Assembly (NCBI GenBank): GCA_002238725.1
Contig: MPMX01000005.1
Span: 28,150-52,149, forward strand
DNA: 24,000 bases
From: Rhodospirillaceae bacterium bin65
GTDB lineage: Bacteria; Pseudomonadota; Alphaproteobacteria; Bin65
Direction: 5' to 3'
Below, one piece after another: positions 2,733-23,954 of the stretch. How positions within the stretch are numbered: position 1 is the stretch's first letter; each line of letters begins with the position of its first letter. The notes below the pieces were generated by a model that saw only the letters and a program-made list of their open reading frames with translations, had not been told where the DNA came from and did no database searches. The position numbers and the translations under genes are program-made.

Positions 2733-2736
2733 CGGG

Positions 2737-5073: not shown

Positions 5074-5964
5074 TCAGGACCGTCCGGGGTCGAGGAGCGA
5101 GATTGGCGCGCGTCTGCCGAGTTCAACCCGTATCCGGCAGATTGTGCCGTCCGGCACGGTGAGGTCCGACGCCCCGTCGAGGCGGATGTCGATCCGGCGC
5201 CGGGACGGCGGAACGGCGGGCTTCAGCCCTGCCAGCCAGCCCGGCAGCGGACTGGCGACCGCCCCGGCGACCGTGCCGTTCAGTCGGTGTGTCGCACCGT
5301 CGGGCAACGCAAATTCGACGGTAGCCGCCATGCCGGGCCGGATGCGCTGCGCCGTGGGCCGGTCGACCCGCAGCACCGCCTGAAGCGGCCGGTTCCCGGC
5401 TCGGCGAATTTGTGCGACGGCCGTGCCGGCCGGCAGAAAATCTCCGGCGGTCCTGGAAAGGACCATGACTTCGCCCGCGGTCCGGCTAACGATCGTCTGC
5501 CGCGCCGAGCGCCGGGCCTCCATCCGCAGCAACGCAACCCGGGTCGAGGCCAGCAGCGACCGCAGCGCGCTGCCGGTGCCGCCGGATCGCGCGATTTCCG
5601 CGCGCAACACGTCCACCCGCTCCCGAAGTGCGGTCGTTTCGCGTTCCAGATCGGGCACGGTCTGGCGCGCAACCGGCTGGCCTGCCCGGACGCGGTCGCC
5701 CGGCCGGACCAGATACTCGATCAGTTGACCGGGTTCAGCCGAAACCGCGGCATGGCGCTCTCCCGGCGCGATCAGCACGCCGTCGACCGTCACGCTCCTG
5801 ACGACGCTGCCGAACAGCAGCCAGGCCACGAACGCCGCAACGACCAACCCGATGGCGGCGAGCGCCAGACGTTCGTGCGGCGCGGTTATTCTGAGAAGTC
5901 GGTCGAGCTGCTCGCGCTCGTTCTTGGCGTCGGCGGATAAATTGTGAAACGGGTTGTTGAACAA
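5074..5964 (-). CDS. HlyD-family membrane-fusion/secretion adaptor of the bacteriocin export system
   Basis: N-terminal ...EREQLDRLLRITAPHERLALAAIGLVVAAFVAWLLFG, a single TM anchor after an LD-rich segment. Then a lipoyl-like segment (GQLIEYLVRPGDRVRAGQPVAR), a coiled-coil stretch (LERETTALRERVDVLRAEIAR) and beta-barrel-like repeats. It is first in the operon with the two ABC genes. At 296 aa it is shorter than most HlyD proteins, and there is no obvious SD before the ATG. Confidence 0.8.
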   Translation of the reverse strand: MFNNPFHNLSADAKNEREQLDRLLRITAPHERLALAAIGLVVAAFVAWLLFGSVVRSVTVDGVLIAPGERHAAVSAEPGQLIEYLVRPGDRVRAGQPVARQTVPDLERETTALRERVDVLRAEIARSGGTGSALRSLLASTRVALLRMEARRSARQTIVSRTAGEVMVLSRTAGDFLPAGTAVAQIRRAGNRPLQAVLRVDRPTAQRIRPGMAATVEFALPDGATHRLNGTVAGAVASPLPGWLAGLKPAVPPSRRRIDIRLDGASDLTVPDGTICRIRVELGRRAPISLLDPGRS

Positions 5965-6528: not shown

Positions 6529-6783
6529 ATGCAATCAGCAGAGGACATGCGCGCCCATCTCACGAACAGGGCCGCCGAGGATTCGGCGTTCCGGGCGCAA
6601 CTTGTCGCCGATCCGAAAAGCGTCATGAATCAGGAATTCGGAATTACGGTTCCGGATAACATCGATATCGTGGTGCACGAGAGCGACATGCGCACCGTCC
6701 ATCTCGCGTTGCCGCCGGATCCCGTCATGGACGAGGAGCAGCTCGAAGCGATCTCCGCCGGGCTTTGCTGCTGCGGCATCTGA
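6529..6783 (+). CDS. NHLP (nitrile hydratase leader peptide) family RiPP precursor; predicted core LCCCGI
   Basis: 84 aa. The leader matches the NHLP pattern as I remember it: AAEDSAFRAQLVADPKSVMNQEFGITVPDNIDIVVHESDMRTVHLALPPDP, then EEQLEAISAG as a double-glycine-type (AG) cleavage site. Only LCCCGI follows before the stop. Strong SD GAGGGAG lies 6 nt upstream. The gene is divergent from the C39-ABC export operon and is followed by hairpins. Confidence 0.9.
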   Translation: MQSAEDMRAHLTNRAAEDSAFRAQLVADPKSVMNQEFGITVPDNIDIVVHESDMRTVHLALPPDPVMDEEQLEAISAGLCCCGI

Positions 6784-6972: not shown

Positions 6973-9348
6973 GTGGCTCCGACGATGGCAGACCAGCCCG
7001 GCAACCCGACGCGGCCGTTCGAGGCACGCTTTGCCGAGCGTGTGGTTGCGTTGCGCTGGCCGATCATTGCGGCCAGTCTCATCCTGGTGTTGATCGCTGG
7101 AGCCGGCGGCGCCTTTCTTCAATTTTCGACGAATTACCGGATCTTTTTCAGCCAGGATAATCCCGAGCTCTTAGCCTACGAAGCGCTGGAGAACACCTAC
7201 GGGAAGACTGAAAACGTCCTCTTCATGATCGTGCCGGAGGCCGGCGACGCCAGCTCGGAACCGGCCCTCAAGGCCGCGGTCTGGCTGACCGAACGGGCCT
7301 GGCAGACGCCCTATTCCCGCCGGGTCGATTCGATCGCCAATTTCCAGCATACGACGGCGGTCGGCGACGATCTGGTGGTGCGCGACCTCGTCGATTCCGC
7401 AAAGCTGGGCGATCCGGAGGAACGGGCGCGGATCCGCGCCGCGGCCCTCGCCGACCCGCGGCTCAAGGGCAGCCTCCTGGCGCGGGACGGCCGCGTCAGC
7501 GCTGTCAACGTCACCGTCGAGTTGCCGGAGGAAGACCAGGCGATCCGGGTACCCGAGGTGGCCGGGTTCGCCCGCAAGCTCGCCGCCGAGGCGGAAAAGC
7601 GTTTTCCGGGCGTCGATGTCCGCGTCGTCGGGACGGTGATGATCAACCACACCTTCTCCCAGGCGTCGGTCGACAGCCAGAAAGTCTTCCTGCCCGCCAG
7701 CCTTGCGATCATGGCCCTGGTCCTCATCCTCCTGACCCGCGGCTTTGCAGGCGTCGCGGCGACCGGGCTGGTCATGGTCTTCTCCATCGTCGTGTCGATG
7801 GGGATGGGCGGATGGGTCGGCCTGCCGTTCACACCGCCGACGGCGCCGGCCCCGACCATCGTGCTGATGATCGTCGTCGCCAACTGCGTACATCTGCTGG
7901 TGACGTTGCAGCAGCGCCTGCGGGCCGGCGATTCGAAACGCGAGGCCATTGTCGAAGCCGTCAGGATCAACCTGCATCCGGTCTTTCTGGCCAGCGTGAC
8001 GACGGCGCTCGGCTTCCTGACCATGAACTTCTCCGAAGTGCCGCCCTACCGGCATCTCGGGAATTTCGTGGCCTTCGGCATTGTCGCCTCCTTCCTGCTC
8101 TCGGTCACCTTTCTGCCGGCGCTGCTTTCGCTCCTCCCCCTGCGCGCGCGCGGCTCCGGACGGCAGGACGACCGGGCCATGGCGGCCCTCGCGGACTTCG
8201 TGGTGCGCCGCCGCACGGCCGTGCTGTGGGGCTCGGTGGCGGTCGTGCTCGCGCTGCTGGCCGCCATCCCGCGCAACGATCTGAACGACGTGCTGGTCCA
8301 CTTCTTCGACGAGAGCACGGAGTTCCGGCAGGATACGGATTTCCTGGACGAACGGCTGAGCGGCAACACCCTGCTCGAATATTCGCTGCACGCGGCCGAA
8401 CCGGGCGGCGTCACCGATCCCGCCTTTCTCGCCAATGTCTCGGCCTTCGCCGACTGGTACCGCAAACAGCCGGAAACGCGGCACGTCGACTCGATTACCG
8501 ATACCTTCCGGCAACTCAACAAGAGCATGCATGGCGACGATCCGGCGACCTACCGGCTGCCGGCAAGCCGCGATCTCGCCGCGCAATACCTGCTGCTCTA
8601 CGAGCTTTCCCTGCCCCAGGGCCTGGACCTGAACAACCGGATCGACACGGCCAAATCGGCAACGCGCCTGACCGTGACGACCAGGACGCTCTCTTCCGGG
8701 GACGTGCTGGCCCTGAATGCGCGTGCGCGAGCCTGGCTGAAGGGCAATGCGCCGAAAATTACACGGGTCGACAGTTCAGGACCGGCGCTGCTGTTCGCCC
8801 ATATCGGGCAGCGCAACATCCGCGCCATGCTGCTCGGAACCGCGGTTGCGCTGCTCGGCATTTCGCTCATCCTGATTGCCGCCTTCCGTTCGCTCCGCCT
8901 CGGCTTCATGAGCCTCGTGCCCAATTTCGTGCCCGCCGTGATGGGATTCGGCGTTTGGGGGCTGATCGTCGGGCAGGTCGGCCTCGCCCTGTCGGTGGTG
9001 GTCGCCATGACAATCGGCATCGTCGTGGACGATACGGTGCACTTCCTCAGCAAATACCGCCGCGCGCGGCGCGAACTCGGCCATTCGTCGGAGGAGGCGG
9101 TTCGCTATGCCTTCCAGGCGGCCGGCCGGGCGCTCGTCACGACCACGGCCGTGCTGGTGGCGGGCTTCCTGATCCTCCTCCTGTCGCCGTTCATCCCGAC
9201 GGCGCAGGTCGGCCTTCTCACCGCGATGATCATCGGCTTCGCGCTGGTCGCCGACCTGCTGCTCCTGCCGGCGTTGCTGCTTGCGATCGACCGCGGCGAC
9301 CCGGCTTCCGGAAAGGCCGATACAGTCTCAGGCGACGCTGCCGCCTGA
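6973..9348 (+). CDS. RND-superfamily exporter, MMPL/COG1033-like (two-fold 6+6 TM architecture with two large periplasmic loops)
   Basis: 791 aa. An N-terminal TM (WPIIAASLILVLIAGAGGAF) and a ~170-aa loop are followed by a 5-TM bundle (...IVLMIVVANCVHLLVTL...FLASVTTALGFLTMNFSE...). The pattern then repeats in the second half (...GIVVDDTVHFLSKYRRAR...ALVTTTAVLVAGFLILLLSPF...). The track start at 6973 is a GTG; ATG 6985 is an alternative. No strong SD precedes either. Confidence 0.85.
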   Translation: MAPTMADQPGNPTRPFEARFAERVVALRWPIIAASLILVLIAGAGGAFLQFSTNYRIFFSQDNPELLAYEALENTYGKTENVLFMIVPEAGDASSEPALKAAVWLTERAWQTPYSRRVDSIANFQHTTAVGDDLVVRDLVDSAKLGDPEERARIRAAALADPRLKGSLLARDGRVSAVNVTVELPEEDQAIRVPEVAGFARKLAAEAEKRFPGVDVRVVGTVMINHTFSQASVDSQKVFLPASLAIMALVLILLTRGFAGVAATGLVMVFSIVVSMGMGGWVGLPFTPPTAPAPTIVLMIVVANCVHLLVTLQQRLRAGDSKREAIVEAVRINLHPVFLASVTTALGFLTMNFSEVPPYRHLGNFVAFGIVASFLLSVTFLPALLSLLPLRARGSGRQDDRAMAALADFVVRRRTAVLWGSVAVVLALLAAIPRNDLNDVLVHFFDESTEFRQDTDFLDERLSGNTLLEYSLHAAEPGGVTDPAFLANVSAFADWYRKQPETRHVDSITDTFRQLNKSMHGDDPATYRLPASRDLAAQYLLLYELSLPQGLDLNNRIDTAKSATRLTVTTRTLSSGDVLALNARARAWLKGNAPKITRVDSSGPALLFAHIGQRNIRAMLLGTAVALLGISLILIAAFRSLRLGFMSLVPNFVPAVMGFGVWGLIVGQVGLALSVVVAMTIGIVVDDTVHFLSKYRRARRELGHSSEEAVRYAFQAAGRALVTTTAVLVAGFLILLLSPFIPTAQVGLLTAMIIGFALVADLLLLPALLLAIDRGDPASGKADTVSGDAAA

Positions 9349-10665
9349 AGCCGCCGGGTTTCCGTCGAACGGCATGCCTTCGCCGCCGAAAACCCGGTTC
9401 GGGTCGAACTCGTTTTTCCAGCGGATGGCCGTTTCAAGCATGTCGCCATAGTGTTCCCGCCATTCGCCGGGTCCGTAACCCACGCGGCCCGACAGATAGG
9501 CTTTCCCGCCGAGTCCGATCAGCGTTCTGTCGATCCTCCGCAGCCGTTCCGCCAGTTCGTTTGCCCGTTCGAACTCGTCGAAAACGGCGAGGACCGAGTA
9601 TGAGAACATCCGTTCGCCCGCGGGGTGCATGAAAAGCGGCGCGCCGATATCCTGCGTTGCGATCGGGTAAATGCCGATCCAGATGTCCGGCGTGCGCGGC
9701 ACCCGGTCCGGGTCGAGCCACGGTTGGGCGAGCACCGTTCGAAGGGCCTCCCAGGGCATGAACCAGTCCCGCCAGGGGTGAAACATCCTCCGGCTGAACG
9801 CCCATCTCGGATACATTCCGGCGCGTCCGACGTCGGCTGAGTCCTTGGCGGAAACGATCTCGTCGTATCCCAAACCACTGAGCGTCCTGCCCTCGTCGTG
9901 ATCTTCGTCATATTCGACGCCGGCGCTCATGACGATATCCCGGTCATGGACCCGGGTTTCCGCCCGAATATGGTCGAACCTGTCTTCGCGGACGGCTTGT
10001 TCGAAGTCGTTCGCGAACCGGTCGAAGTCACGGTAGCGGAGCTCGTATTGCCGGATCCGTTTGCCGGCCTTTCGAAGCCGGATCCAGGCGTCGGTTACGA
10101 TGCCGAACTGGCCCTGACCGCCCCTGACTGCATCGAACAGGCCGGAATTCCTGCTGTTTGAGCACAAAACCTTCTCGCCGGTTCCGGTCACCACCTCGAG
10201 TTGCTCGACCTGCCCGGCCTGCACCCCGTGCCGATGGGACGTCGTTCCGAATCCTCCCGCAGACAGCGTGCCGCCCACGCTGACTTCCGCCGTGTCTACG
10301 AGAATCCGCGGGAGTCCGCTCGTTTCGCGCAGCGCGTCGACAATCGAGCCCCACTGCGCTCCCCCTTGCGCGCGCACCAGGTCCGGGCCGGCGGTTTCGA
10401 CCCGACCGAGCCAGACCGTGTCGACCACCAGCCCGCCGTCGGTCAGGCTCTGGCCGCCCTGGGAGTGCCCGCCGCCGCGAATGGAAAGCCGAACGTCCTC
10501 TTTCGCCGCCCACCGGACAATGCCCGACACGTCCTCGACGCTCTTCGGCCGCGCCACCGCGCCCGGCGTCCGTTCGATCATTCTTCCGAAGTCGCGGGAC
10601 CGCGGATCGAGGTCCACCTGTTCTCTGCTCAGGCCCGGAATGACACCTCGTTCGTTCATTGGCAT
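9328..10665 (-). CDS. FAD-linked oxidase, PCMH/FAD_binding_4 type with a cytokinin-dehydrogenase-like C-terminal domain
   Basis: N-terminal FAD-binding block PKSVEDVSGIVRWAAKEDVRLSIRGGGHSQGGQSL (a GHS motif typical of covalent histidyl-FAD enzymes), then VGGTLSAGGFGTTSHRHG. The C-terminal LGGKAYLSGRVGYGPGEWREHYGDMLETAIRWKNEFDPNRVFGGEGMPF resembles the CKX C-terminal signature (YL...W..HFG..W......K..DP..i..PGQ.IF). The 3' end overlaps the convergent RND gene by 21 nt. Confidence 0.85.
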   Translation of the reverse strand: MPMNERGVIPGLSREQVDLDPRSRDFGRMIERTPGAVARPKSVEDVSGIVRWAAKEDVRLSIRGGGHSQGGQSLTDGGLVVDTVWLGRVETAGPDLVRAQGGAQWGSIVDALRETSGLPRILVDTAEVSVGGTLSAGGFGTTSHRHGVQAGQVEQLEVVTGTGEKVLCSNSRNSGLFDAVRGGQGQFGIVTDAWIRLRKAGKRIRQYELRYRDFDRFANDFEQAVREDRFDHIRAETRVHDRDIVMSAGVEYDEDHDEGRTLSGLGYDEIVSAKDSADVGRAGMYPRWAFSRRMFHPWRDWFMPWEALRTVLAQPWLDPDRVPRTPDIWIGIYPIATQDIGAPLFMHPAGERMFSYSVLAVFDEFERANELAERLRRIDRTLIGLGGKAYLSGRVGYGPGEWREHYGDMLETAIRWKNEFDPNRVFGGEGMPFDGNPAASGGSVA

Positions 10666-10819: not shown

Positions 10820-11689
10820 ATGAATCGAATTCAGCAACCGCCGGATACCGGGACCGAGATGGAAACCACTGTTTCCGAGCACTACGCCGACCTGACCGAG
10901 CGCATGGAAATGTTCGGCGGCGACCTGCTGGCCTGTCATTTCGGCCTTTGGGGCCCGGACACGACGACGGACCGGGAAGGCCTGCTGCGCGCCAACCGGA
11001 CGCTCGTGCAGGGGTGCGACCTCGGACCGGGGCGGCACGTGCTGGATGCCGGCTGCGGCGTCGGCGGCACTGCGATTACGCTGGCCGAGACCTGCGGCGT
11101 ACGCGTCACCGGCCTGACGATCTGCGAACCTCATATCGCCGTGGCGACGCAGCACGCGGAAGAGCGCGGAGTAGGCCACCTGGTCGACTTCCGTTACGGC
11201 GATTTCATGGATCTGCCGTTTCCCGATGCCAGTTTCGACGCTGTCCTGAATCACGAATCCTTCTGCTATGCGGAGGACAAGCTCGCCTATCTCCGGGGCG
11301 TGTACCGGGTGCTCAAGCCCGGCGGGCGCTGGCAGGCTCTCGAAGGGCTGCTGAGCGGTGCGCCCATGTCCGAAGAACAGGAAGCAAATCATGCCACCGC
11401 GCAGCGCGGCTGGCGCATGCCGCCGCTCGAGCGGTGGCGCGACGTGATTGCATTGCTCGACGAAGCCGGATTCGTCGACATTCGGGAGCGGGATCTTTCG
11501 TCGGAAGCGGCGCCGGCGACGAAACGGCTTCGCGACGGGTGGCTGTTGCTGACTTTCCTGAACCCCCGGTCCGGCGGGCTGAACAAGGCGTCCCAGGAAT
11601 TTATGGAAGCGACTGTCGGCTACGATCAGGGTCTGCGCGAAGGCGTGTTCACCTATCATTTCCTGTCCGGGGCCAAGCCGGATCGGTGA
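10820..11689 (+). CDS. Class I SAM-dependent methyltransferase (paralog 1)
   Basis: SAM motif I VLDAGCGVGGTAITLA, post-I acidic GLTICE, motif II/III FDAVLNHESFCY and VLKPGGRW. The N-terminal EHYADL...HFGLWGP block is as in the sarcosine/tocopherol/GPP-C-methyltransferase-type family. The track ORF (10268..) extends upstream into sequence antisense to the oxidase. I place the start at ATG 10820 (MNRIQQ...); ATG 10859 (METTVSEHY) is an alternative. Confidence 0.8.
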   Translation: MNRIQQPPDTGTEMETTVSEHYADLTERMEMFGGDLLACHFGLWGPDTTTDREGLLRANRTLVQGCDLGPGRHVLDAGCGVGGTAITLAETCGVRVTGLTICEPHIAVATQHAEERGVGHLVDFRYGDFMDLPFPDASFDAVLNHESFCYAEDKLAYLRGVYRVLKPGGRWQALEGLLSGAPMSEEQEANHATAQRGWRMPPLERWRDVIALLDEAGFVDIRERDLSSEAAPATKRLRDGWLLLTFLNPRSGGLNKASQEFMEATVGYDQGLREGVFTYHFLSGAKPDR

Positions 11690-11747: not shown

Positions 11748-12647
11748 CTATGCGGGTTTCTGTGCGCAATACCGCTTGAGCTCGAAGCTCCCGTTTTTCC
11801 AGGCTTCGTACAGCGTTCCGAACTGATCGATCAGCCCGCGGATCCCCGGCGTTTCGACTCCGGCAAACTGTAGCGTGGCAAGGAAATTGTAGCTGTTTCC
11901 GACAAGCCGCAGGTTATCCGAATCCTTGCCGTCGAATCCCTCGAACTCGAGAATTTCCAAACCCGCTTCGTGCAGTTTCTCCGTGTAGGTGGACTGGGTC
12001 TCCAGACCGTCCACGGCAAATGGCTTGCACAGCGGCACGATGTGCTTCTCGTAGACATCGGCCGCCAGGCCGTCGCGCGCCATCCAGTCCATTGCCGCGA
12101 TCTTTCCCGAGGGCTTCAGTATCCGGCCCACTTCGAGAAGAAATTGCCTCCGGTCGCTGTAGTGGCAGGCGCTCTCTATGTTGACGACAGTATCGATCGA
12201 ATCGTCGGCGAAGGGCAGACTCTGCGAGCAATCCGCATATTCGAAGGAAATCCGGTTATCCAGATCCGCATCTGCCGCTTTTCCGGCGGCAATTTCCAGC
12301 TGCATCCTGTTGATGTTGACGCCGGTGACGGTGCATCCCCTGGACCGGGCCAATAGAATGGCGGTTCCGCCGACGCCGCATCCCGCATCCACCACATGGT
12401 GGCGTTCCTCGATTCCGGCCGGCGCAACAATGGCCTCGACCATGCGCTCCACGGCCCGGGCGAGGCCCGGTGAATCGACGAGAGATTCGCCGGGTTCGGG
12501 ACACTCCCCGGGCTCGAACAGTCCGAAATGGATATGGTCGCGGTTCCACCCGTTGAGGTAGATGCCGGGCGTGTTTTCGTCGTAGTAGCGTTCGGCCGCA
12601 CTTTTCTCTTCTGACGCGGATGTCTCCGGACGTTCGTTCACTGTCAT
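11748..12647 (-). CDS. Class I SAM-dependent methyltransferase (paralog 2)
   Basis: 299 aa. N-terminal ERYYDENTPGIYLNGWNRDHIHFGLF, SAM motif VVDAGCGVGGTAILLA, GVNINR, IDTVVNIESACHY and ILKPSGKIAAMDW. It aligns by eye with the 10820-11689 product along the whole Rossmann core. It is last in the minus-strand biosynthetic gene string. Confidence 0.85.
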   Translation of the reverse strand: MTVNERPETSASEEKSAAERYYDENTPGIYLNGWNRDHIHFGLFEPGECPEPGESLVDSPGLARAVERMVEAIVAPAGIEERHHVVDAGCGVGGTAILLARSRGCTVTGVNINRMQLEIAAGKAADADLDNRISFEYADCSQSLPFADDSIDTVVNIESACHYSDRRQFLLEVGRILKPSGKIAAMDWMARDGLAADVYEKHIVPLCKPFAVDGLETQSTYTEKLHEAGLEILEFEGFDGKDSDNLRLVGNSYNFLATLQFAGVETPGIRGLIDQFGTLYEAWKNGSFELKRYCAQKPA

Positions 12648-12748: not shown

Positions 12749-13867
12749 TTATGAAGTCGGCGCGGCGATCAGCACCATGTAAACGTAGCCCTTGACCTGC
12801 CCGATGCCGTCGCCGTCCAACACGATCTTGAAGTGGTGAATGCCGCGCAGCAGCACAAACTGGCCGGACCTCGAAAACAGCGTCGTCGGCCCCGCCGTCC
12901 ATCCTGACAGCGCGGACAATTTCTGCGGCACGCCAAGACCTTCCGTGCGCAGGCCGTCGACGAAGGTATTCCAAAGGCGGGGATCGTCCAGCCAATAGCG
13001 CGGATCCTTAGACACCCTTTCCTTGGCAATGAAACTCAGTCCGAGCGTTGGGCCCAGACCGCCGGACAAGACGTCGAAATGCGCCCCCAGGGCGACGAAC
13101 CCGCCATGTTTTTCGAAGCGCGAGACAGCGGCCGCGGCGGCCGGGCGCTGTCCCGGCCAGCCCGCGCGTTCGAGGAATGCCGCCAGATCCTGCGAGTTCC
13201 GAAACCCCGTCACTGCAAGCCGGAGCGCTCGTTCCCGCGAAGGGAAGGCGCCAAAGGATTCGACTCGCGTGTCCGGCCTTTGCGCCAGGTAAATCCGCTC
13301 TGCATGCTGCCGCTCGGCGGCATCGGGGCTCCAACCAACGGCGGATACCAGCGCGTCGAGCACCGTACCGACATCGCCGAGGCATCGGCCGTCGCCCACC
13401 ATCGGCCGTTCTGCCGGCCGGAGAAAGATGCCGGGATCCGCCGGCGCGTCGTCGGGTCTCGAAGCGACGTCGTATTCGAGCATCATCTTCCGTCCGACGA
13501 CCTGGCAAAGCGGCGAATCGTCGGGCTCGGTTTGCTCCAGCAGTTGCGCGATGGCCGAAGCTGACGGAACCGGTTTGTCCAGCCGCGCCTGTTTTTCGAA
13601 ATACGCCGCCGGTCCGGTGCCGCCGACAACCGAAACTCCGAGGTCGGCGCCCGGCCGGGTCTCGTGCAGCGGCAGTTCGAAGCCGAACGGGAAGGCGGCC
13701 ACGGCCGCCGGCAGGTCCCGGGCGCGCTCCAGGACACTTTCCCACTCACGGTCACCGATCAGGACGGGCGATATCTGGCCCCTCAACCGTTCCAGCACTT
13801 CGGCCATGGAGCCGGCTTCGCCGGCGAGGCGCTCCTGGGTCACGGCCAGGCCTTCCTCAAAATTCAT
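12749..13867 (-). CDS. Hypothetical protein, 372 aa, with no family motif I recognise; translationally coupled to the cyclodehydratase
   Basis: Excellent SD GAGGAG 5 nt before ATG 13867, sitting inside the last codons of the upstream gene (stop at 13877). The composition is protein-like rather than the R/G/P-rich shadow type. There are five pairs of beta-strand-like segments separated by helix-like segments (see finding). No cofactor or catalytic motif was identified. Confidence 0.7.
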   Translation of the reverse strand: MNFEEGLAVTQERLAGEAGSMAEVLERLRGQISPVLIGDREWESVLERARDLPAAVAAFPFGFELPLHETRPGADLGVSVVGGTGPAAYFEKQARLDKPVPSASAIAQLLEQTEPDDSPLCQVVGRKMMLEYDVASRPDDAPADPGIFLRPAERPMVGDGRCLGDVGTVLDALVSAVGWSPDAAERQHAERIYLAQRPDTRVESFGAFPSRERALRLAVTGFRNSQDLAAFLERAGWPGQRPAAAAAVSRFEKHGGFVALGAHFDVLSGGLGPTLGLSFIAKERVSKDPRYWLDDPRLWNTFVDGLRTEGLGVPQKLSALSGWTAGPTTLFSRSGQFVLLRGIHHFKIVLDGDGIGQVKGYVYMVLIAAPTS

Positions 13868-13876
13868 ATCCGCTCC

Positions 13877-16267
13877 TCACGCGATAACCGGCACAGGATT
13901 GAGGTCGGCTTCCGGCAGCGGCGACTCGCGCCAGCCCATTTCGACCGGAACGTCGTACAGGCGCCCGGGCGCGAAACGCTCCCAGAAATGGCGCAGGCCG
14001 GGCACGATGACCCGCGCCACCGGCATGCCGATATCCGGCCGCGTCTGGTCGAGCACCAGAAATTCCATGTCCCTGGCCTCGACCAGCGCCCGGCACCGCT
14101 CGACCTCTTCGCGCGCGTCGGCTGTATCCGGGACAGGATAGTCCGCATTGCCGCGCGTGGGCGCCCCCGCCGCCGGCGCCAGCCAGGGATGGTCCGCCAG
14201 CGTCGCCGTCTTCCACCACCACAGCGCCAGCGGATCGTCGATCGCCGGGCCGCCGCCGCCCGGCCGCGGCAGCCAGGTCAGGCACTGGTTCAGCTCGCAC
14301 ACCGCGCGCAGGGCCGCGATGCGCGGGTCGGTATGCGCCCCGGCGCCGTAGATGATGTCCTCGGTTTCGCCGCCGATCTTGCGCGAGACGGCGACGAAGG
14401 CGGGAATGCCGAGGTCGGCGGTGACGTCGAGCACCCACATGTCGCGCTCATGCCGGCGGTAATAGTCCGGCGCCGAGGCCAAGTAATCGTCGCCGAAACT
14501 TTCCAGATCCACGCCCGGCACGCGCAACCGGTTGTACCACCAGATCGCGAAGGCGTCGCGTTCGACCAGTTCGAAGAAGCCCTGGAGGATCGCCTCTTCA
14601 AGGGTATTGCCGGCGGCGCAGCCGTTCGAATCCGCGATGAAATCGGCGCTGCCCCGTTGCTCGGCCGGCGTGCTGTAGAGCATCGATGTCGGCAGATGGC
14701 GGTGGCGATCCTGCGTCAGCGACCAGACCGGCGACCAGCTTATTTCGGCGTCCGGATCGAGCCGCTGCGGCACGATATTGTACGGATGGCCCCGGGCGTT
14801 GATTTCGTCCGCATTTTCCAGCTGGCGTTCGCTGAACAGCTGGACGTCGTTCGGGTGGATCGCCGCTGCATTGCCGGCTGCGCCCAAATCCACATACCGC
14901 CCGAGCCGGCGGATCTCGTCGCCGTGGAAGGCGCCGGAGTAGCGCTCGATCGCTTCGCACAAGGCGCTGGCCTCGGACTGCGCCCGCGTGCTGCCCTTGC
15001 CGGCGCTCTTGCTGCGCAGGCTACGCCTCAGCGAGCTCAATTTCCGGCTTCGCAGTCCGTAGTTGGTCCCCGCCCAGTAAACGTGGAGCCAGGAATCGGC
15101 CTCTTCCGTGGTGCGCGCCACCCAGGTCACGACGCCGCTGACCGGGCTGATCAGATTGCGGTATCGGGCCAGGGTCGCTTCGGGGGAGACTGCGCGCACG
15201 CCGCCGCTGTTGCTGATGCCGGTCGGGCTCGGCTGCAGGCGCACCGGAACCGGCGGCCGGTCGGCGCGGTACAGGCCCTCGTCGCCGCACGCGAAACATT
15301 GCGGCCGGCGCATGACCGGATGCCGCTCGCCGGCGAGACGGCCGACATCGAGCGAGATGGCCTGCGCATGGAGCGGTGCCGCTTCGTCCAGAACCAGCCA
15401 TTTGGCGATCTCGGCCGCGATCAGGCCGTAGACCGCGTCCAGCACGGCGGGCTCTGCGGCGCCGGGCCGGAAGGCGGCCTCGTCGCCCGCGATGTTGCGC
15501 AGGAAGTTGTGGACCTCCCGGTGGCTGCGCATCCGGTAGGCGAGGCAGGCCCAGCACGGCCCCCGTTCCGCCGGCCGGAACACCGGGCCGAACAGCGGTT
15601 GCAGGCCCTTCGGCCGAACGAGCACCCACGGTGCGCCGGTTTCGATGCGCTTCCGGTTGATGGCGTCGCAGCGTTCTTCGAGATAATCGGCGCAGACGAC
15701 CGCTGTGAGGGCGATATCCTCCCGGCCCGTCGCGACGCCCATCGCCTCGAGCCGCCGGGAAAACTGTCCGCCGTCGCCGTCGACCGCCACGCGCGCCGCC
15801 GCCAGGCGCTGTTCCGCCCAGCGCGGCGCGGCGCCGAGGGCAGACCAGTAGGCCGCCCGGCCCCGGTCCATCGAATGTTCGGCGGAAACGGCATAGCCCC
15901 TGGACGCTAGGCCGGCGAGCGCGGTGCGGATATCGGCAGCGGCATGGGCGCCGGCGAGTGCCGCAACGATGTCGCCCTGCGGCCGGCCGTCGAGCAGTGG
16001 CAGCAGATCGCGGTAGATCGGCCGGCGCAGCAGCGTATTGAAGGTTTCGGAAACCAGCAGGGTCTGCTGCCCGTCGACCGGATGAAAGTCGAGATGCGGC
16101 GTGAGCGTCGGCCGTTCGACAAGCCCCCGGTCCTCGGCCGAGACCCTTGTCAGGATTCCCGGCGGCGACGGTCTGGCCGGCGAAGCGGGCGCGTCTGTCT
16201 TGCTGTCCGGGGCCGGGGCGGCGGAACGGCGCGATGGACTGCCGTCGGGTCGATGCCTGTCAGTCAT
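13877..16267 (-). CDS. Fused E1-like (SagC/ThiF-like docking) plus YcaO (SagD-type) azoline-forming cyclodehydratase
   Basis: 796 aa. The N-terminal half carries the cyclodehydratase-domain pattern (PHLDFHPVDGQQTLLVSETFNTLLRRPIYRDLLPLLDG ... PWVLVRPKG...GPVF...GPCWACLAYRMR ... CFACG). The C-terminal half is YcaO-like (GKGSTRAQSEASALCEAIERYSG, DSNGCAAGNTLEEAILQGFFELVERDAF, GIPAFVAVS, GAGAHTDPRIAALRAVCELNQ, proline-rich C-terminal tail ...IVPGLRHFWERFAPGRLYDVPV). The first ~50 aa are a P/S/A-rich low-complexity extension. Confidence 0.9.
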   Translation of the reverse strand: MTDRHRPDGSPSRRSAAPAPDSKTDAPASPARPSPPGILTRVSAEDRGLVERPTLTPHLDFHPVDGQQTLLVSETFNTLLRRPIYRDLLPLLDGRPQGDIVAALAGAHAAADIRTALAGLASRGYAVSAEHSMDRGRAAYWSALGAAPRWAEQRLAAARVAVDGDGGQFSRRLEAMGVATGREDIALTAVVCADYLEERCDAINRKRIETGAPWVLVRPKGLQPLFGPVFRPAERGPCWACLAYRMRSHREVHNFLRNIAGDEAAFRPGAAEPAVLDAVYGLIAAEIAKWLVLDEAAPLHAQAISLDVGRLAGERHPVMRRPQCFACGDEGLYRADRPPVPVRLQPSPTGISNSGGVRAVSPEATLARYRNLISPVSGVVTWVARTTEEADSWLHVYWAGTNYGLRSRKLSSLRRSLRSKSAGKGSTRAQSEASALCEAIERYSGAFHGDEIRRLGRYVDLGAAGNAAAIHPNDVQLFSERQLENADEINARGHPYNIVPQRLDPDAEISWSPVWSLTQDRHRHLPTSMLYSTPAEQRGSADFIADSNGCAAGNTLEEAILQGFFELVERDAFAIWWYNRLRVPGVDLESFGDDYLASAPDYYRRHERDMWVLDVTADLGIPAFVAVSRKIGGETEDIIYGAGAHTDPRIAALRAVCELNQCLTWLPRPGGGGPAIDDPLALWWWKTATLADHPWLAPAAGAPTRGNADYPVPDTADAREEVERCRALVEARDMEFLVLDQTRPDIGMPVARVIVPGLRHFWERFAPGRLYDVPVEMGWRESPLPEADLNPVPVIA

Positions 16268-16355: not shown

Positions 16356-18830
16356 TCAGGACGGGCCGGCCGCGGCGTCCGCCGTCGCGTCCAGCGCGCC
16401 GATCACGGCGGCGGCGCGCGCCGCCGTTTCGCCGGCCGCGGCATCCAGCGCGTCGAAATCGTCCTGGCCGCAGGACTGCGCGAGCACGTCCCTGGCACTC
16501 GATCCCAGCGCCTCGGCCTGGACGCCATCGCCTGCGACGAGCCGCTGGGCGCCGTGCAGGTTCCGCCACAGCGCCGCGGCGTCCGCCAGGTCCGCCGCCG
16601 GACCGTCAGCGATCTTTCCCTGTGCGGCTGCGGCGCGAAAGACCGAAGCCGCGGCGGGTGCGGGATCGTCCGGGGCGTCCCCGGCAAGGACCAGTTGCAG
16701 GAGCCGTGCAGCGCGTTCGACATCAAAAAGGCCGCCGCGCATGTTTTCATACGCAGCAAGCCCGGTTCCGGCATCGCCGTTGCCGGCGGTGTGCAGTTCG
16801 GCGATCAACCTGCCGCGCGCGGCGCCCGCGGCCAGGGCTTCGCGCCGCGCCTGGTCGAACCGCTCTCCGATTCCGGCCGCGCCGTGTTCGAAAATGCAGC
16901 GCGCGCGGGTCAGTTCCAGAAGTTCGCTTGCCGGCGCGGCGGTCCGGCAGTGCTCCGCGAAACCGGTCAGGGACCGCACAGGGCGCCCTTTCCGGCTGCC
17001 GGGGATCGGCGCGAAAATCAGGCTGTCGCGCGACAGTTCCCTGAGCGCATCGTGGAAACGCCAGCACAGGCCATCGTAGCTGTCGTCGGAGCCGCCTTCG
17101 TAGACGAAGAGAATTTCGAGCGCAGCGCCGGGCGCCGTTTCCCGGCTCGCCGGATCGCCCAGGATTGCAGCGGCGACACCGCCCCCGCTCCCCGGCACGA
17201 GCCGGCCGGCGAATTGCTCGGCGACCGACGACAGGACGGCGGAAATCGAGGCTTCGGCCAGATTGGACAGGGCCGTCCCCGCCTCGATCGGCGTCAGGTT
17301 GCCCCGCAATGTGTGCATGCCGATCTGGAACGCCTTGTCGTTCGACCAGTTGCGCAGCGTCTCCACCGTGTCCCGAACGTCCTGGACCGGCGTTTCGGCG
17401 ATGCGTTCCTTCATTTCGGCGACGCCGAATTCGTGCGTCCAGTAGAGGCGTGTCAGGCCCTGGCGGGCGATCGCCTCGGCCTCCGGGTCCGGGCCGAAGC
17501 CCTTGGGCAGGTCGAGATCGGTGAATTCCCTGTCCTGCAGGCTGTCGAGCAGTTCCGGATGCCGCTCGATCCATCCTGCGAGATGCGGCGCGGCGGCGAA
17601 TATCTCGACGATGGCGTCGAACGCTTCCGGGCGCGCGGTCGAAACCGGGCTGTCGTAGGCGCTCCAGTCCTCGATCTCGGGATAGAACTGCGCGCGCCAC
17701 CGGTCGACCAGCGGGTCCATGGTCTCGAACCATCGCTTGGGACGCACTGCCAGGTTGAACATCCTGGCGTAGCTGCCCGGCAGTTGCGGCGACTCGTCGG
17801 CGCCGCGATTCTGCAGCAGGGGATAGGGCCGGCTCGCCACGGCGTGGTGATCCGGGTGCCGCTGCATGTTGTAGAACATCCAGTTGCTGAACTTGTAGTT
17901 GGCGTTCCACGAGTGCCGGGGCCGGACCTTCTCGAACCGGCCGCTGCGCAGGCGGACCCGGCGCAATCCGTAGTGCTGCATGTAGTTGCTGATCTTCATC
18001 GAGAAGACGGTGCCGAGGCACAGGACGGCATAAGCCAGAACCGCCCACAGGCCGCCCATCCAATAGATAAGCGCATACCAGAAACCGGTTTCGATCCCGT
18101 ACCGCCAGAACGGGTTGCAGTAGTGCCAGATCGGCAGGGGGGGGGGGGCCCGCCCCCCCCCCCCCGCCCGCCCCCCCACCCCCCCCCGCGCGCCCCGCCA
18201 GGAGCCGGTAAGATTGCTCGCGACTTCCCGGGGAAAGTACTGCCAGAAGCTCTGGCCCCTGGGCGCGGAGCCGACGTCCAGCGGCGTGCCGACCAGGGCG
18301 TGGTGGATGTAGACATGCTCGGTGGCGTATTGCGGGTAGGAGGCGGACGCGAGCAGGAACTCGCCGAGCCGCCGCTCCCAGGTTGCGCGCCGGTGGATCA
18401 GTTCGTGGCCGACGATGAAGACCGCCTGGGCTTCGCCCGTGAGCACAACCGCCAGCAATATGCATTCCCAGACCGAGAACTGGCCGGCGGCAAGGATCTG
18501 CCAAAGCCCGAACACGAGAGTCGGCGGCCAGAGAAATGCCCAGAACCAGACCGGCAGGTTGTGCCAGAACAGCTTTCGTTCGGGAGTATTTGCGGGGTCC
18601 ATGTTCCGCTCGTCGTCGCCGAAGGCGATGTCCAGCGGGCCCGCGAGCATGAAGAAGGCAAACGGCGCCGCAATCCACCAGCCGCCGTGGATTAGGGCGA
18701 GGATAATCAGCGGAAAAATTGCCAGCGGCAGGAAATGGGGCAGGGCGTTGCGGAACGAAGGTTCGATTGCCTTCGCTGCGCGGGTGTTTCCGGAGTTCAG
18801 ACCGCCCGGTTCGACGATATTTTCCGCCAT
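16356..18830 (-). CDS. Fusion protein: N-terminal AlkB-type membrane di-iron hydroxylase/fatty-acid-desaturase-fold domain, C-terminal GlnE-like (glutamine synthetase adenylyltransferase half) domain with a degenerate active site
   Basis: 824 aa; SD AGAGG lies 6 nt before ATG 18830. AlkB hallmarks appear in order: HELIHR, EHVYIHH, NYMQHYGL, HSWN, LQRH-like NMQRHPDHH, and the C-terminal MDPLV. From about aa 400 it aligns by eye to one GlnE half: AAAPHLAGWIERHPELLDSLQD; VETLRNWSNDKAFQIGMHTLRGNLTPIEAGTALSNLAEASISAVL; then AILGDPASRETAPGAALEILFVYE where GlnE has GKLGG.ELGY.SDLDLIFL; then LELTRARCIF and GGLFDVERAARLLQLV. The frame stays open across the G12/C13 tract at 18137-18187. Confidence 0.8.
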   Translation of the reverse strand: MAENIVEPGGLNSGNTRAAKAIEPSFRNALPHFLPLAIFPLIILALIHGGWWIAAPFAFFMLAGPLDIAFGDDERNMDPANTPERKLFWHNLPVWFWAFLWPPTLVFGLWQILAAGQFSVWECILLAVVLTGEAQAVFIVGHELIHRRATWERRLGEFLLASASYPQYATEHVYIHHALVGTPLDVGSAPRGQSFWQYFPREVASNLTGSWRGARGGVGGRAGGGGRAPPPLPIWHYCNPFWRYGIETGFWYALIYWMGGLWAVLAYAVLCLGTVFSMKISNYMQHYGLRRVRLRSGRFEKVRPRHSWNANYKFSNWMFYNMQRHPDHHAVASRPYPLLQNRGADESPQLPGSYARMFNLAVRPKRWFETMDPLVDRWRAQFYPEIEDWSAYDSPVSTARPEAFDAIVEIFAAAPHLAGWIERHPELLDSLQDREFTDLDLPKGFGPDPEAEAIARQGLTRLYWTHEFGVAEMKERIAETPVQDVRDTVETLRNWSNDKAFQIGMHTLRGNLTPIEAGTALSNLAEASISAVLSSVAEQFAGRLVPGSGGGVAAAILGDPASRETAPGAALEILFVYEGGSDDSYDGLCWRFHDALRELSRDSLIFAPIPGSRKGRPVRSLTGFAEHCRTAAPASELLELTRARCIFEHGAAGIGERFDQARREALAAGAARGRLIAELHTAGNGDAGTGLAAYENMRGGLFDVERAARLLQLVLAGDAPDDPAPAAASVFRAAAAQGKIADGPAADLADAAALWRNLHGAQRLVAGDGVQAEALGSSARDVLAQSCGQDDFDALDAAAGETAARAAAVIGALDATADAAAGPS
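18137..18187. repeat. Extreme G/C homopolymer block inside the alkB-like CDS (G12, then C13, C7, C9)
   Basis: G12 at 18137-18148, CCCG, C13 at 18153-18165, GCCCG, C7 at 18171-18177, A, C9 at 18179-18187. G12 and C13 are self-complementary and could form a GC-only hairpin. The block encodes RGARGGVGGRAGGGGRAPPPLP in the annotated frame. Confidence 0.9.
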
Positions 18831-22943: not shown

Positions 22944-23040
22944 CTGCGCAGCGGCAGAGCGCCGGAACATTTGCAGTTTGCCCGCACGCCCGCGAGGCCG
23001 CACATTGGCGGCACAGGCAACACGATCCGGAAGGCTGGCC

Positions 23041-23523
23041 ATGCAAGGCGACAAACAGGTTATCGCCTACCTGAACAAGATCCTGCGCAACGAACTGACC
23101 GCCATCAACCAGTATTTCCTGCATTCGCGAATGCTGAAGGACTGGGGCCTGCACCGGCTGGGCAACTACGAATACGAAGAATCCGTCGACGAAATGAAGC
23201 ATGCCGACCGGCTGATCGAGCGGATCCTGTTTCTGGAGGGGCTGCCGAACCTGCAGGATCTCGGCAAGCTGCTGATCGGGCAGGACGTTAAAGAGATCCT
23301 CGAATGCGATCTGAAGCTGGAAGAGTTGGCCATTCCGGACCTGCGCGAAGCGATCGCCCATTGCGAAAGCGTGCGGGACTATATCTCGCGCGAAATTCTC
23401 GAAGACATCCTCGAATCCGAGGAGGAACATGTCGACTGGCTGGAAACCAACCTCGAACTGATCGGCAGAGCCGGAATCGAGAACTATCAGCAATCCCAGA
23501 TGGGTGAGAGCGGGAGTTCCTAG
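23041..23523 (+). CDS. bfr: Bacterioferritin
   Basis: [77 protein letters not shown]... is near-colinear with E. coli Bfr as I remember it, including the heme-ligand Met in DEMKHAD and the ferroxidase residues (E..H pairs, EEEHVDWLE). SD GGAAGG lies 6 nt upstream of ATG 23041. The track start 22978 is too far upstream. Confidence 0.92.
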
Positions 23524-23547: not shown

Positions 23548-23727
23548 CTATTCGGCAGGGTGAATCGCTTCCGACGCCGGGTCTCCGGCTTCAACGCGCC
23601 GCTGCCTCTCGGCTGAAGGCGGTTCGGCGTCCGTGCTGGCCAACTCCAGTTTCTCGGCGCGTCTCTGGCTCATGCCGATACAGGCGTCGACAATCGTTTC
23701 GGCCTTGAGGTTTTTCCACAGCATCAT
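23548..23727 (-). CDS. Possible small ORF (59 aa) translationally coupled to bfd
   Basis: Its ATG (23727-23725) overlaps the bfd stop TGA (23726-23724) in an ATGA arrangement. It encodes MMLWKNLKAETIVDACIGMSQRRAEKLELASTDAEPPSAERQRRVEAGDPASEAIHPAE. No recognisable family; support is positional only. Confidence 0.25.
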   Translation of the reverse strand: MMLWKNLKAETIVDACIGMSQRRAEKLELASTDAEPPSAERQRRVEAGDPASEAIHPAE

Positions 23728-23954
23728 GGCGCAGGCGCCCCGGCCTCGGGCGTTACTGAGCGTTTCATGGTCCGGTTGTGGTTTGGTGCGTCCGGGCCGG
23801 CGTCCGCCAGGATCGCTTCGGCATAGTCGACACACCGCCGACAGGCCGGGCTGCCGCCGAGTATCTCGTAGGCATGCTCGACGCACGCAACGCCGGACCG
23901 GGCGAGGGTCTCAAGCTGCTGGCTGGTATGGCCGTTGCACAGACAGACATACAT
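23724..23954 (-). CDS. bfd: Bacterioferritin-associated ferredoxin (BFD-like [2Fe-2S] domain)
   Basis: MYVCLCNGHT... with the C-x-C ... C-x-x-C pattern (CLC ... CRRC) characteristic of Bfd. It is a small protein (76 aa) next to bfr, although here convergent rather than co-directional. Confidence 0.85.
   Translation of the reverse strand: MYVCLCNGHTSQQLETLARSGVACVEHAYEILGGSPACRRCVDYAEAILADAGPDAPNHNRTMKRSVTPEAGAPAP

Follow-up and report, generated by a model that had tools for sequence, protein, structure and literature searches.

The locus described here raises the question of what an AlkB-type membrane hydroxylase, joined in a single protein to one half of a glutamine synthetase adenylyltransferase (GlnE), is doing next to a gene for peptide cyclodehydration. 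The gene in question, 16356..18830 on the minus strand and here referred to as FUS, lies in a stretch of 24,000 nt with 65% GC from contig MPMX01000005.1 of Rhodospirillaceae bacterium bin65; this whole stretch is called the window. A first-pass annotation made from the letters had read FUS as an AlkB-type hydroxylase fused to a degenerate GlnE-like half and had connected it with peptides that are made on the ribosome and modified after translation (RiPPs). We found that FUS combines a putative membrane diiron oxygenase with a GlnE-like half that appears to be catalytically dead but maintained, and that it belongs to the core of the srp cassette known from sponge microbiomes. We are highly confident of this identity, of the architecture and of the membership in the cassette.

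A genome scan with FUS returned 471 genomic relatives, and the best 80 of these 471 plus the window make up the 81 loci to which the neighbourhood counts refer, a neighbour being a gene within 8 kb of FUS. Residue counts and the profile compared with PDB entries were taken from an alignment of 84 homologues, and residue numbers follow the 824-codon translation of the window. Ratios of nonsynonymous to synonymous substitution rates (dN/dS) were calculated for seven FUS pairs, separately for each half. All 80 best relatives are metagenome-assembled genomes (MAGs), and their labels cover about eight lineages, i.e. Alpha-, Gamma- and Deltaproteobacteria, Acidobacteriota, Nitrospinota, Nitrospirales, Thermodesulfobacteriota and Poriferihabitaceae. 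A sponge origin was read from the MAG names only, many of which point to it (Spongia_Bin9, Poriferihabitaceae, and the SB06xx, RHO, COS and IRC bins).

The Pfam scan found one domain in each half of the protein, namely FA_desaturase (PF00487, aa 120-358) with E 4.4e-27 and 95.9 bits (gathering cutoff 29.7), and GlnE (PF03710, aa 471-547) with E 4.7e-8 and 33.2 bits (gathering cutoff 24). All the motifs by which the gene had first been recognized are present in the translation, including HELIHR (aa 142-147), EHVYIHH (171-177), NYMQHYG (282-288), HSWN (306-309) and HPDHH (325-329), together with MDPLV, HPELLDSL, LTRARCIF, GGLFDVERAARLLQL and AILGDPASRETAPGAALEILF. All 84 homologues have H142, H146, H172, H176, H177, H286, H306, H325 and H329, and 83 of them have H328 as well. 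The homologue profile matched solved alkane monooxygenases (8f6t, E 5e-62; 8sbb, E 9e-52), and Foldseek aligned the AlkB half with 8f6t at E 9e-12. The AlphaFold2 model of full-length FUS, with a mean predicted local distance difference test score (pLDDT) of 78.6 and a predicted template modelling score (pTM) of 0.73, contains six long hydrophobic helices (aa 26-47, 51-74, 84-114, 120-145, 240-259 and 261-286); its Foldseek matches were the AlkB-AlkG structure 8f6t, GlnE (1v4a and 3k7d) and also the GlnE-like AMPylase DrrA. Sequence and model together show the N-terminal half to be an AlkB-type diiron enzyme of six helices in which no histidine ligand is missing.

Compared with the AlkB-rubredoxin fusion of Fontimonas thermophila (8f6t, 8sbb), FUS likewise has six transmembrane helices, shares the motifs HxxxH, EHxxxHH, NYxxHYGL, HSW and QRHxDHH at about 29% identity, and carries its extra domain at the same position, the C-terminus. 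The appendage itself differs, being a dead GlnE half in FUS and an electron carrier in Fontimonas, and the NYxEHYG of AlkB reads NYxQHYG in FUS. Unlike typical AlkB systems, moreover, FUS is adjoined by neither a rubredoxin nor a reductase, and it stands in a RiPP cassette whereas AlkB stands in alkane catabolism. A search for rubredoxin-type motifs found none in the window, in agreement with the first-pass annotation, and none within ±8 kb of FUS in the 80 related loci; no alk catabolic genes were found near FUS. The sole small redox protein in the window is a Bfd-type [2Fe-2S] ferredoxin-like ORF (~23724..23954, minus strand), which adjoins a bacterioferritin gene (22978..23523, plus strand) and is not conserved near FUS elsewhere.

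The C-terminal half resembles GlnE far beyond chance. BLASTP of aa 396-824 against a genuine GlnE (P0150, 1013 aa, with both Pfam GlnE halves) gave 34% identity over 441 columns at E 1e-65, covering GlnE residues 570-1006 and including the helical domain. The homologue profile matched the adenylylation domain of E. coli GlnE (3k7d) at E 1.5e-16 and the N-terminal domain (1v4a) more weakly, while Foldseek matched the half, most of which is modelled at pLDDT >85, to 1v4a and 3k7d at about E 1e-10. In NCBIfam only GlnE models were matched, only in their C-terminal halves and with 79.5, 41.7 and 26.2 bits against equivalog cutoffs of 724, 487 and 625. Residues specific to GlnE are retained (REFTDLxLP, RxW..K.FQ.G.H.LRG and GGL.DVE). 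The proposed joining of an AlkB-type hydroxylase to one GlnE-like half is therefore borne out by Pfam, PDB profile, BLASTP and Foldseek alike. FUS is nevertheless no GlnE, since it contains a single half, where GlnE has two in tandem (deadenylylation and adenylylation, ~950 aa), has lost the catalytic signatures and scores far below the equivalog cutoffs; in addition, its GlnE-like half is tethered to a membrane enzyme.

The nucleotidyltransferase (NTase) site had already been called degenerate, and the alignments show it to be further gone than that. The genuine GlnE motif FGKLGSREMTVSSDLDLLF corresponds to ILGDPASRETAPGAALEILF in FUS. Across the 84 homologues GKLGS has become GD(L/P)AS, with the Gly position always Ala (A561) and Lys replaced by Asp, and DLD has become xL(D/E). 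The first metal-binding Asp is unconserved (A in 36, E in 22, D in 6 and others, including T and P, in the rest), and at the second D is found in 61 and E in 17 of the 84. The GlnE segment YDVDMRLRP (DxRLRP), with the third carboxylate and RLRP, is deleted or replaced in the alignment with P0150. All three catalytic signatures are thus lost or altered. On the other hand, the dN/dS of this half lies at 0.18-0.34 despite the dead signatures (0.05-0.18 for the AlkB half), which argues for a functional pseudoenzyme domain, and both halves are under purifying selection. The GlnE half is, on these sequence data, a catalytically dead but maintained pseudoenzyme domain and not decaying sequence. Cysteines at aa 589, 645 and 787 (window 16470..17066) are kept in 88-94% of the homologues, in a domain with no known cofactor. 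Glutamine synthetase is the natural partner of GlnE, and a Gln-synt_C gene is present within 8 kb of FUS in four of the 81 loci (L005, L027, L031 and L048), probably by coincidence.

Since one local corruption does sit inside FUS, it has to be considered whether two separate genes were joined artificially, by a frameshift or in assembly. At 18137..18202 there is a smear of G and C homopolymers, 27 nt too long with the reading frame kept, which adds 9 false residues to a predicted cytoplasmic loop and turns VVRERLARRR into GARGGVGGRAGGGGRAPPP (residues 213-232 of the window protein); this segment is missing from all homologues in the alignment. Three independent assemblies of the same organism (GCA_026710645.1, one from ENA and one from JGI), 99.9% identical over 17.6 kb, all read TGGCGGGTCGTGCGGGAGCGGCTGGCGCGCCGCCGCCTG at this site, that is VVRERLARRR. 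The patch is thus almost certainly a sequencing or assembly error, and the protein earlier given as 824 aa, which is correct for the codons as written, has a true product of 815 aa (identical with P0001). As the patch lies in the AlkB half, away from the junction, the fusion junction is not affected. More than 120 full-length homologues among the matches listed, of ~800 aa and 60-98% identity, have both Pfam domains in one ORF, and several come from complete chromosomes; the 471 genomic matches, from independent assemblies, show the same one-ORF architecture. The linker is invariant in the homologue alignment at W378, R379, P384, D388, W389, D393, S394 and R400, eight junction residues in all, and the codon-position GC of FUS (0.69/0.51/0.84, GC at third positions thus 0.84) has the pattern of the other real genes in the window. 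With these single-ORF homologues, the kept linker and dN/dS below 0.35 in both halves, the frameshift or assembly join that had been suggested for checking is excluded, and we count this explanation as already refuted, with practically no probability left to it.

The cassette to which FUS belongs is not new. The srp clusters of sponge microbiomes encode a 252-bp NHLP precursor with the core LCCCW, all three Cys of which are turned into thiazolines by the YcaO protein SrpC, whereas the C-terminal Trp is brominated by SrpI (PMC10858898; bioRxiv 10.1101/2023.06.09.544420). These clusters are known from many phyla of symbionts; in distribution and in transcript level they rank among the foremost biosynthetic loci of sponge microbiomes, and the YcaO and the brominase are the only srp enzymes studied so far (PMC10858898; bioRxiv 10.1101/2023.06.09.544420). 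The srp papers covered, among which the primary description (Nguyen et al., JACS 2021) is not included, are silent on the AlkB-GlnE, prenyltransferase-like and cyclase-like genes. With the same limit as to the primary srp paper, our literature search returned no paper on an AlkB-GlnE fusion, none connecting AlkB with proteusins, NHLP or YcaO, and none linking srp genes to prenyltransferases or cyclases.

Of the 81 loci, 69 have the YcaO gene directly downstream of FUS and in the same orientation, and 77 have at least one other srp-type gene within 8 kb, so that the link to RiPP genes proposed earlier is real in the FUS clade. The FUS stop codon overlaps the YcaO start by 4 nt (ATGA) in at least 13 loci, and the identities of FUS and YcaO to a reference locus are correlated with r = 0.87. 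The canonical order is (MMPL) HlyD, ABC-C39, ABC2, N433, FUS, YcaO, the 372-aa protein, precursor (opposite strand), LolA-like, a 410-aa protein and halogenase. Precursors ending in ITEEQLEAISAG-LCCCW were found in 37 of the best 80 related loci; the Trp halogenase is present in 40 of the 81 and the LolA-like gene in 22. Between phyla, FUS proteins share 68-87% identity, a level compatible with horizontal spread of the cassette. Two subclusters, a halogenase-type and a methyltransferase-type, both contain FUS, YcaO and the 372-aa protein along with precursor and exporters; the presence of FUS in both gene sets suggests that it acts on what the two products share. By its gene order and conservation, FUS is a core gene of the srp cassette and co-operonic with the SrpC-type YcaO. 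No SagB-type/nitroreductase gene or other oxygenase is conserved across the cassette.

An apparent single FUS+YcaO ORF of 1571 aa (L075:3264-7979) arises from masked N positions in the database entry and is no real triple fusion. About eight loci have FUS in unrelated neighbourhoods. The Paracoccaceae MAGs L010, L011, L013 and L016 keep FUS, the Trp halogenase, the LolA-like gene and ABC/HlyD genes; within 8 kb of FUS they have long non-coding stretches and no YcaO, prenyltransferase-like gene or recognizable precursor, and an alternative precursor sought in L010 and the related YcaO-less Paracoccaceae loci was not found. These loci may be decaying clusters.

The cluster in the window can be classified, from its genes, as a variant of the published srp proteusin cluster. 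Its precursor has 84 aa (252 nt), matching the published precursor in length and type (bioRxiv 10.1101/2023.06.09.544420), with the leader end EEQLEAISAG followed by an LCCC core, and it is accompanied by a fused YcaO and C39-ABC export as in the published clusters; likewise, the closest FUS relatives are all MAGs, many with names pointing to sponges, and from many phyla. The precursor is 54-63% identical to those of related loci, which end in SAG-LCCCW, and the YcaO is 62-86% identical to that of loci with canonical LCCCW precursors. In contrast to the published LCCCW, the core in the window reads LCCCGI, and the halogenase, LolA-like gene and N433 gene of canonical loci are not found in the window, which has two methyltransferases and a FAD oxidase instead. 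The lack of an SrpI-type halogenase is consistent with a core that has no Trp, and the Trp-less core, the missing halogenase and the replacing genes together make the window an srp variant. The gap of 88 nt earlier given between FUS and the next gene is exact, and no terminator-like site was found in this FUS-YcaO gap of the window.

Several neighbours point to isoprenoid or lipid chemistry. The 372-aa protein, earlier called an orphan, has indeed no family match in Pfam, NCBIfam or the PDB profile search, but its AlphaFold2 model (pLDDT 93.7, pTM 0.92) shows five alpha-alpha-beta-beta repeats, and every one of its top 50 Foldseek matches is an aromatic prenyltransferase of the ABBA/DMATS kind. 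EpzP, NphB, AmbP3, DMATS1, LimF and CymD are among them, LimF being a peptide prenyltransferase. As modelled, the protein has an ABBA (PT-barrel) prenyltransferase-like fold. With such a fold next door, the likely FUS substrate shifts from a bare soluble peptide to a lipidated peptide. Directly upstream of FUS, 47 loci have a member of the N433 family (~433 aa, e.g. L062:6482-7867, plus strand), consisting of an NHLP/nitrile-hydratase-alpha-like N-domain and a squalene-hopene-cyclase-like (class II terpene-cyclase-like) domain. Of 15 members, 14 combine NHase_alpha-like and SQHop_cyclase_C-like parts, the latter (PF13243) with a best E of 7e-7, and drimenol synthase (9mhs) was matched at E 5e-5. 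QDLDST, an invariant motif, is reminiscent of the acid motif (DxDD/DxDTT) found in class II cyclases. N433 looks like an enzyme bearing a leader-like tag. The cassette also encodes an MMPL/HpnN-like transporter and a LolA-like protein.

The succession of prenylation, epoxidation and class II cyclization is a known logic of bacterial meroterpenoids and diterpenoids, for example in phenalinolactone (PlaT1-T3; PMC11317874), and in the srp operon, too, an oxygenase stands together with prenyltransferase-like and class II cyclase-like proteins. The two differ in that the meroterpenoid oxygenase is a flavoenzyme and the srp oxygenase a membrane diiron protein of AlkB type, and in that the srp scaffold would be a ribosomal thiazoline peptide; the srp steps are putative.

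Since the cassette encodes a protein of prenyltransferase fold and usually one resembling class II cyclases, a scheme of five steps is the most economical. In it, the YcaO would make thiazolines on the precursor, and the ABBA protein would add an isoprenoid to the peptide. FUS, at the cytoplasmic face of the inner membrane and depending on O2, would then hydroxylate, terminally epoxidize or desaturate a hydrophobic part of the product before export, the most plausible target being the isoprenoid chain that its ABBA prenyltransferase-like neighbour would attach. The FUS product of canonical loci could be the substrate of the N433 cyclase-like protein, and the modified peptide would be exported last. 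Electrons for FUS would come from a donor encoded elsewhere in the genome. AlkB enzymes hydroxylate terminal methyls and epoxidize terminal alkenes of aliphatic substrates partitioned into the membrane. The pseudo-GlnE half would do no chemistry and would serve as a docking or regulatory platform, with the NHLP leader, the NHLP-like domain of N433 or the YcaO as candidate partners; the proposal of a docking module is based on the protein substrates of GlnE-type NTases and on the protein-like character of the NHLP leader. We take a non-catalytic docking or regulatory role of this half as likely, and we lean towards FUS acting on the srp product rather than on bulk lipid. The model as a whole, in which FUS is a membrane oxidase tailoring a hydrophobic, probably isoprenoid, part of the srp peptide, is offered as tentative and may well prove wrong, and a prenyl or aliphatic tail as the actual target is held with still less confidence.

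A number of observations weigh against this model. The window is without the cyclase-like N433 gene, and no electron donor is encoded within ±8 kb of FUS in the 81 loci. About 12 of the 81 have no adjacent YcaO and 4 have no srp gene at all. As SrpC turns all three Cys into thiazolines, the core LCCCGI, which has no aromatic residue, offers no obvious prenyl acceptor. Furthermore, neither the architecture nor the module is confined to RiPP genes. An exhaustive search with the C-terminal half of FUS gave 701 cluster representatives, which fall into srp-clade fusions, distant AlkB-pseudo-GlnE proteins (25-44% identity, PF00487 confirmed), AcrB/RND pumps and genuine GlnE at ~30% identity. The distant fusions in L085 and L086/L087, 27-39% identical in the C-terminal half, adjoin a sulfotransferase gene or genes for a PAF-AH-type lipase and an MFS transporter, with no RiPP genes. 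The same dead GlnE-like module is also found at the C-terminus of AcrB/RND pumps of ~1520 aa (P0166, P0177). There it is 32% identical, lies as in FUS at the cytoplasmic C-terminus of a polytopic membrane protein and is also without DxD and DxRLRP; the partner differs in being a transporter, and the context is a membrane-fusion-protein gene and an RND gene near SQS_PSY genes without RiPP genes. The pump gene at L084:10001-14578 follows a membrane-fusion-protein gene in an MFP-RND operon and has two SQS_PSY (squalene/phytoene synthase-type) genes nearby. Such fusions outside RiPP contexts indicate that the module predates the RiPP association and is not specific to RiPPs: the dead GlnE module is attached quite generally to membrane proteins on their cytoplasmic side and did not arise for the recognition of peptides. 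The role of a peptide- or nucleotide-binding scaffold suggested for the GlnE-like half is weakened accordingly as a RiPP-specific idea.

Alternative readings of the two halves have to be compared with this model. That the GlnE-like half is still an active NTase, adenylylating the peptide, a partner protein or the oxygenase itself, would agree with the retained GlnE fold found by Foldseek, with S562, E564 and an acidic residue at 572 kept in 93-98% of the homologues and with purifying selection on the half; we regard it as very improbable, as the Gly of G-[GS] is invariantly Ala, Asp stands for the Lys of GKLG, the position of the first metal-binding Asp holds A, E, D, T or P, DxRLRP has been lost and the best score of 79.5 bits is so far under the cutoff of 724. 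An ordinary alkane-degradation AlkB that happens to adjoin a RiPP cluster is even harder to accept and can be given hardly any weight: it is true that FUS has 29% identity and all signature motifs in common with the solved alkane monooxygenases, but rubredoxin, reductase and alk catabolic genes were not found nearby, the synteny with YcaO is kept across phyla, and the extra 430-aa domain is conserved.

The substrate allows two further readings. FUS could oxidize the peptide directly, either converting thiazoline to thiazole in SagB's stead or hydroxylating the first Leu of the core. Its tight, often translational, coupling to the YcaO would fit, as would the lack of a nitroreductase or SagB-type dehydrogenase gene, dependent on flavin mononucleotide, in the cassette; desaturations are known chemistry of the FA_desaturase superfamily, and LCCC is the part of the core common to all subtypes. 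However, AlkB-type active sites are reached from inside the membrane and take aliphatic chains, and we know of no membrane diiron enzyme that acts on a peptide, which weighs against it as well. Some FUS loci also keep the halogenase and exporters without the YcaO, and azolines, not azoles, are described in the published work, though that was reconstituted without FUS. Direct oxidation therefore seems unlikely to us. Modification of lipid only, whether a membrane lipid or a hopanoid-like one and whether for self-protection or for MMPL/LolA-like export, with FUS co-inherited with the cassette, we consider improbable. It can appeal to the distant members of the architecture in lipid-type, non-RiPP contexts, to the MMPL/HpnN-like and LolA-like genes in the cassette, to the 4 to 12 loci that have FUS without YcaO and to the pseudo-GlnE module on an AcrB pump near SQS_PSY genes; it has more difficulty with the fixed place of FUS between N433 and YcaO, with overlapping stop and start codons, and with its being kept in both subtypes when only 22 of the 81 loci have the LolA-like gene.

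Returning to the model of a membrane oxidase tailoring the srp peptide, its most far-reaching form is that FUS is an AlkB-type membrane diiron RiPP tailoring enzyme acting on a prenylated thiazoline peptide, that the dead GlnE half recruits the protein-like NHLP leader or the NHLP-tagged cyclase to the membrane, and that the cassette, with its YcaO, ABBA prenyltransferase, FUS, class II cyclase-like protein and lipid-type exporters, makes a peptide-terpenoid hybrid passed horizontally among about eight sponge-symbiont lineages. We consider this combination doubtful. If it were true, RiPP maturation would gain its first membrane diiron enzyme in FUS, and a pseudo-nucleotidyltransferase would have been put to a new use. 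The conserved AlkB-type oxygenase and its prenyltransferase-fold and cyclase-like neighbours shift the picture of the srp product from a small brominated azoline peptide to, possibly, a lipidated, membrane-processed peptide-isoprenoid hybrid. For enzymology, this would take AlkB chemistry past hydrocarbon catabolism and would make the dead GlnE half a clear further case of a pseudoenzyme that membrane proteins, oxygenases as well as RND pumps, have recruited as an appendage.

Table 1. Position of FUS, its parts and the neighbouring cluster genes in the window, with the basis of each assignment.
Feature	Position	Strand	Basis
FUS: AlkB-type membrane diiron oxygenase + pseudo-GlnE (putative)	16356..18830	-	ORF, translation, GC3, Pfam, homologues
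AlkB-like half, aa 1 to ~390, six predicted transmembrane helices	17661..18830	-	PDB profile, AlphaFold2, Foldseek
Histidine-box span	17844..18407	-	translation and homologue alignment
Poly-G/poly-C patch in FUS	18137..18202	-	DNA sequence; same-organism contigs L081-L083; homologue alignment
Pseudo-GlnE half, aa 396-824: NTase domain + helical domain	16359..17645	-	PF03710, NCBIfam, 3k7d, P0150, AlphaFold2
Degenerate NTase motif AILGDPASRETAPGAALEILF	17106..17168	-	PDB profile, alignment with P0150, column counts
Deleted/replaced GlnE segment, YDVDMRLRP to F----APIPGS	16995..17021	-	pairwise alignment with P0150
SrpC-type fused cyclodehydratase: leader-binding + YcaO	13877..16267	-	PF02624 E 6e-95; TIGR03604 and TIGR03882 above cutoffs
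372-aa ABBA prenyltransferase-like protein (earlier orphan)	12749..13867	-	AlphaFold2, Foldseek; in 54/81 loci
S-adenosylmethionine (SAM)-dependent methyltransferase, cluster-subtype-specific	11748..12647	-	Pfam Methyltransf_11/25; in 7/81 loci
Second SAM-dependent methyltransferase	10859..11689	+	Pfam; gene call in same-organism contig L081
FAD_binding_4 oxidase, cluster-subtype-specific	9328..10665	-	Pfam; in 4/81 loci
MMPL/HAE3-type RND transporter	6973..9348	+	Pfam MMPL, Sterol-sensing; NCBIfam HAE3, HpnN-like; in 34/81 loci
SrpE-type precursor, NHLP leader + core LCCCGI	6529..6783	+	TIGR03793, 64.1 bits against cutoff 50.9
HlyD-type adaptor, NHLP bacteriocin secretion	5074..5964	-	TIGR03794, Pfam HlyD_3
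C39-peptidase ABC exporter (NHLM_micro_ABC1)	2737..5073	-	TIGR03796, 871.5 bits against 853.3; Pfam Peptidase_C39, ABC_membrane, ABC_tran
Second ABC exporter subunit (ABC2), cut by window start	3..2720	-	tblastn, 58% identity over 910 aa to ABC2 of L062

At the start of the window, two plus-strand ORFs (228..2054 and 1786..2991) gave tblastn matches in 36-44 loci; they are antisense shadows of the ABC2 gene on the minus strand.

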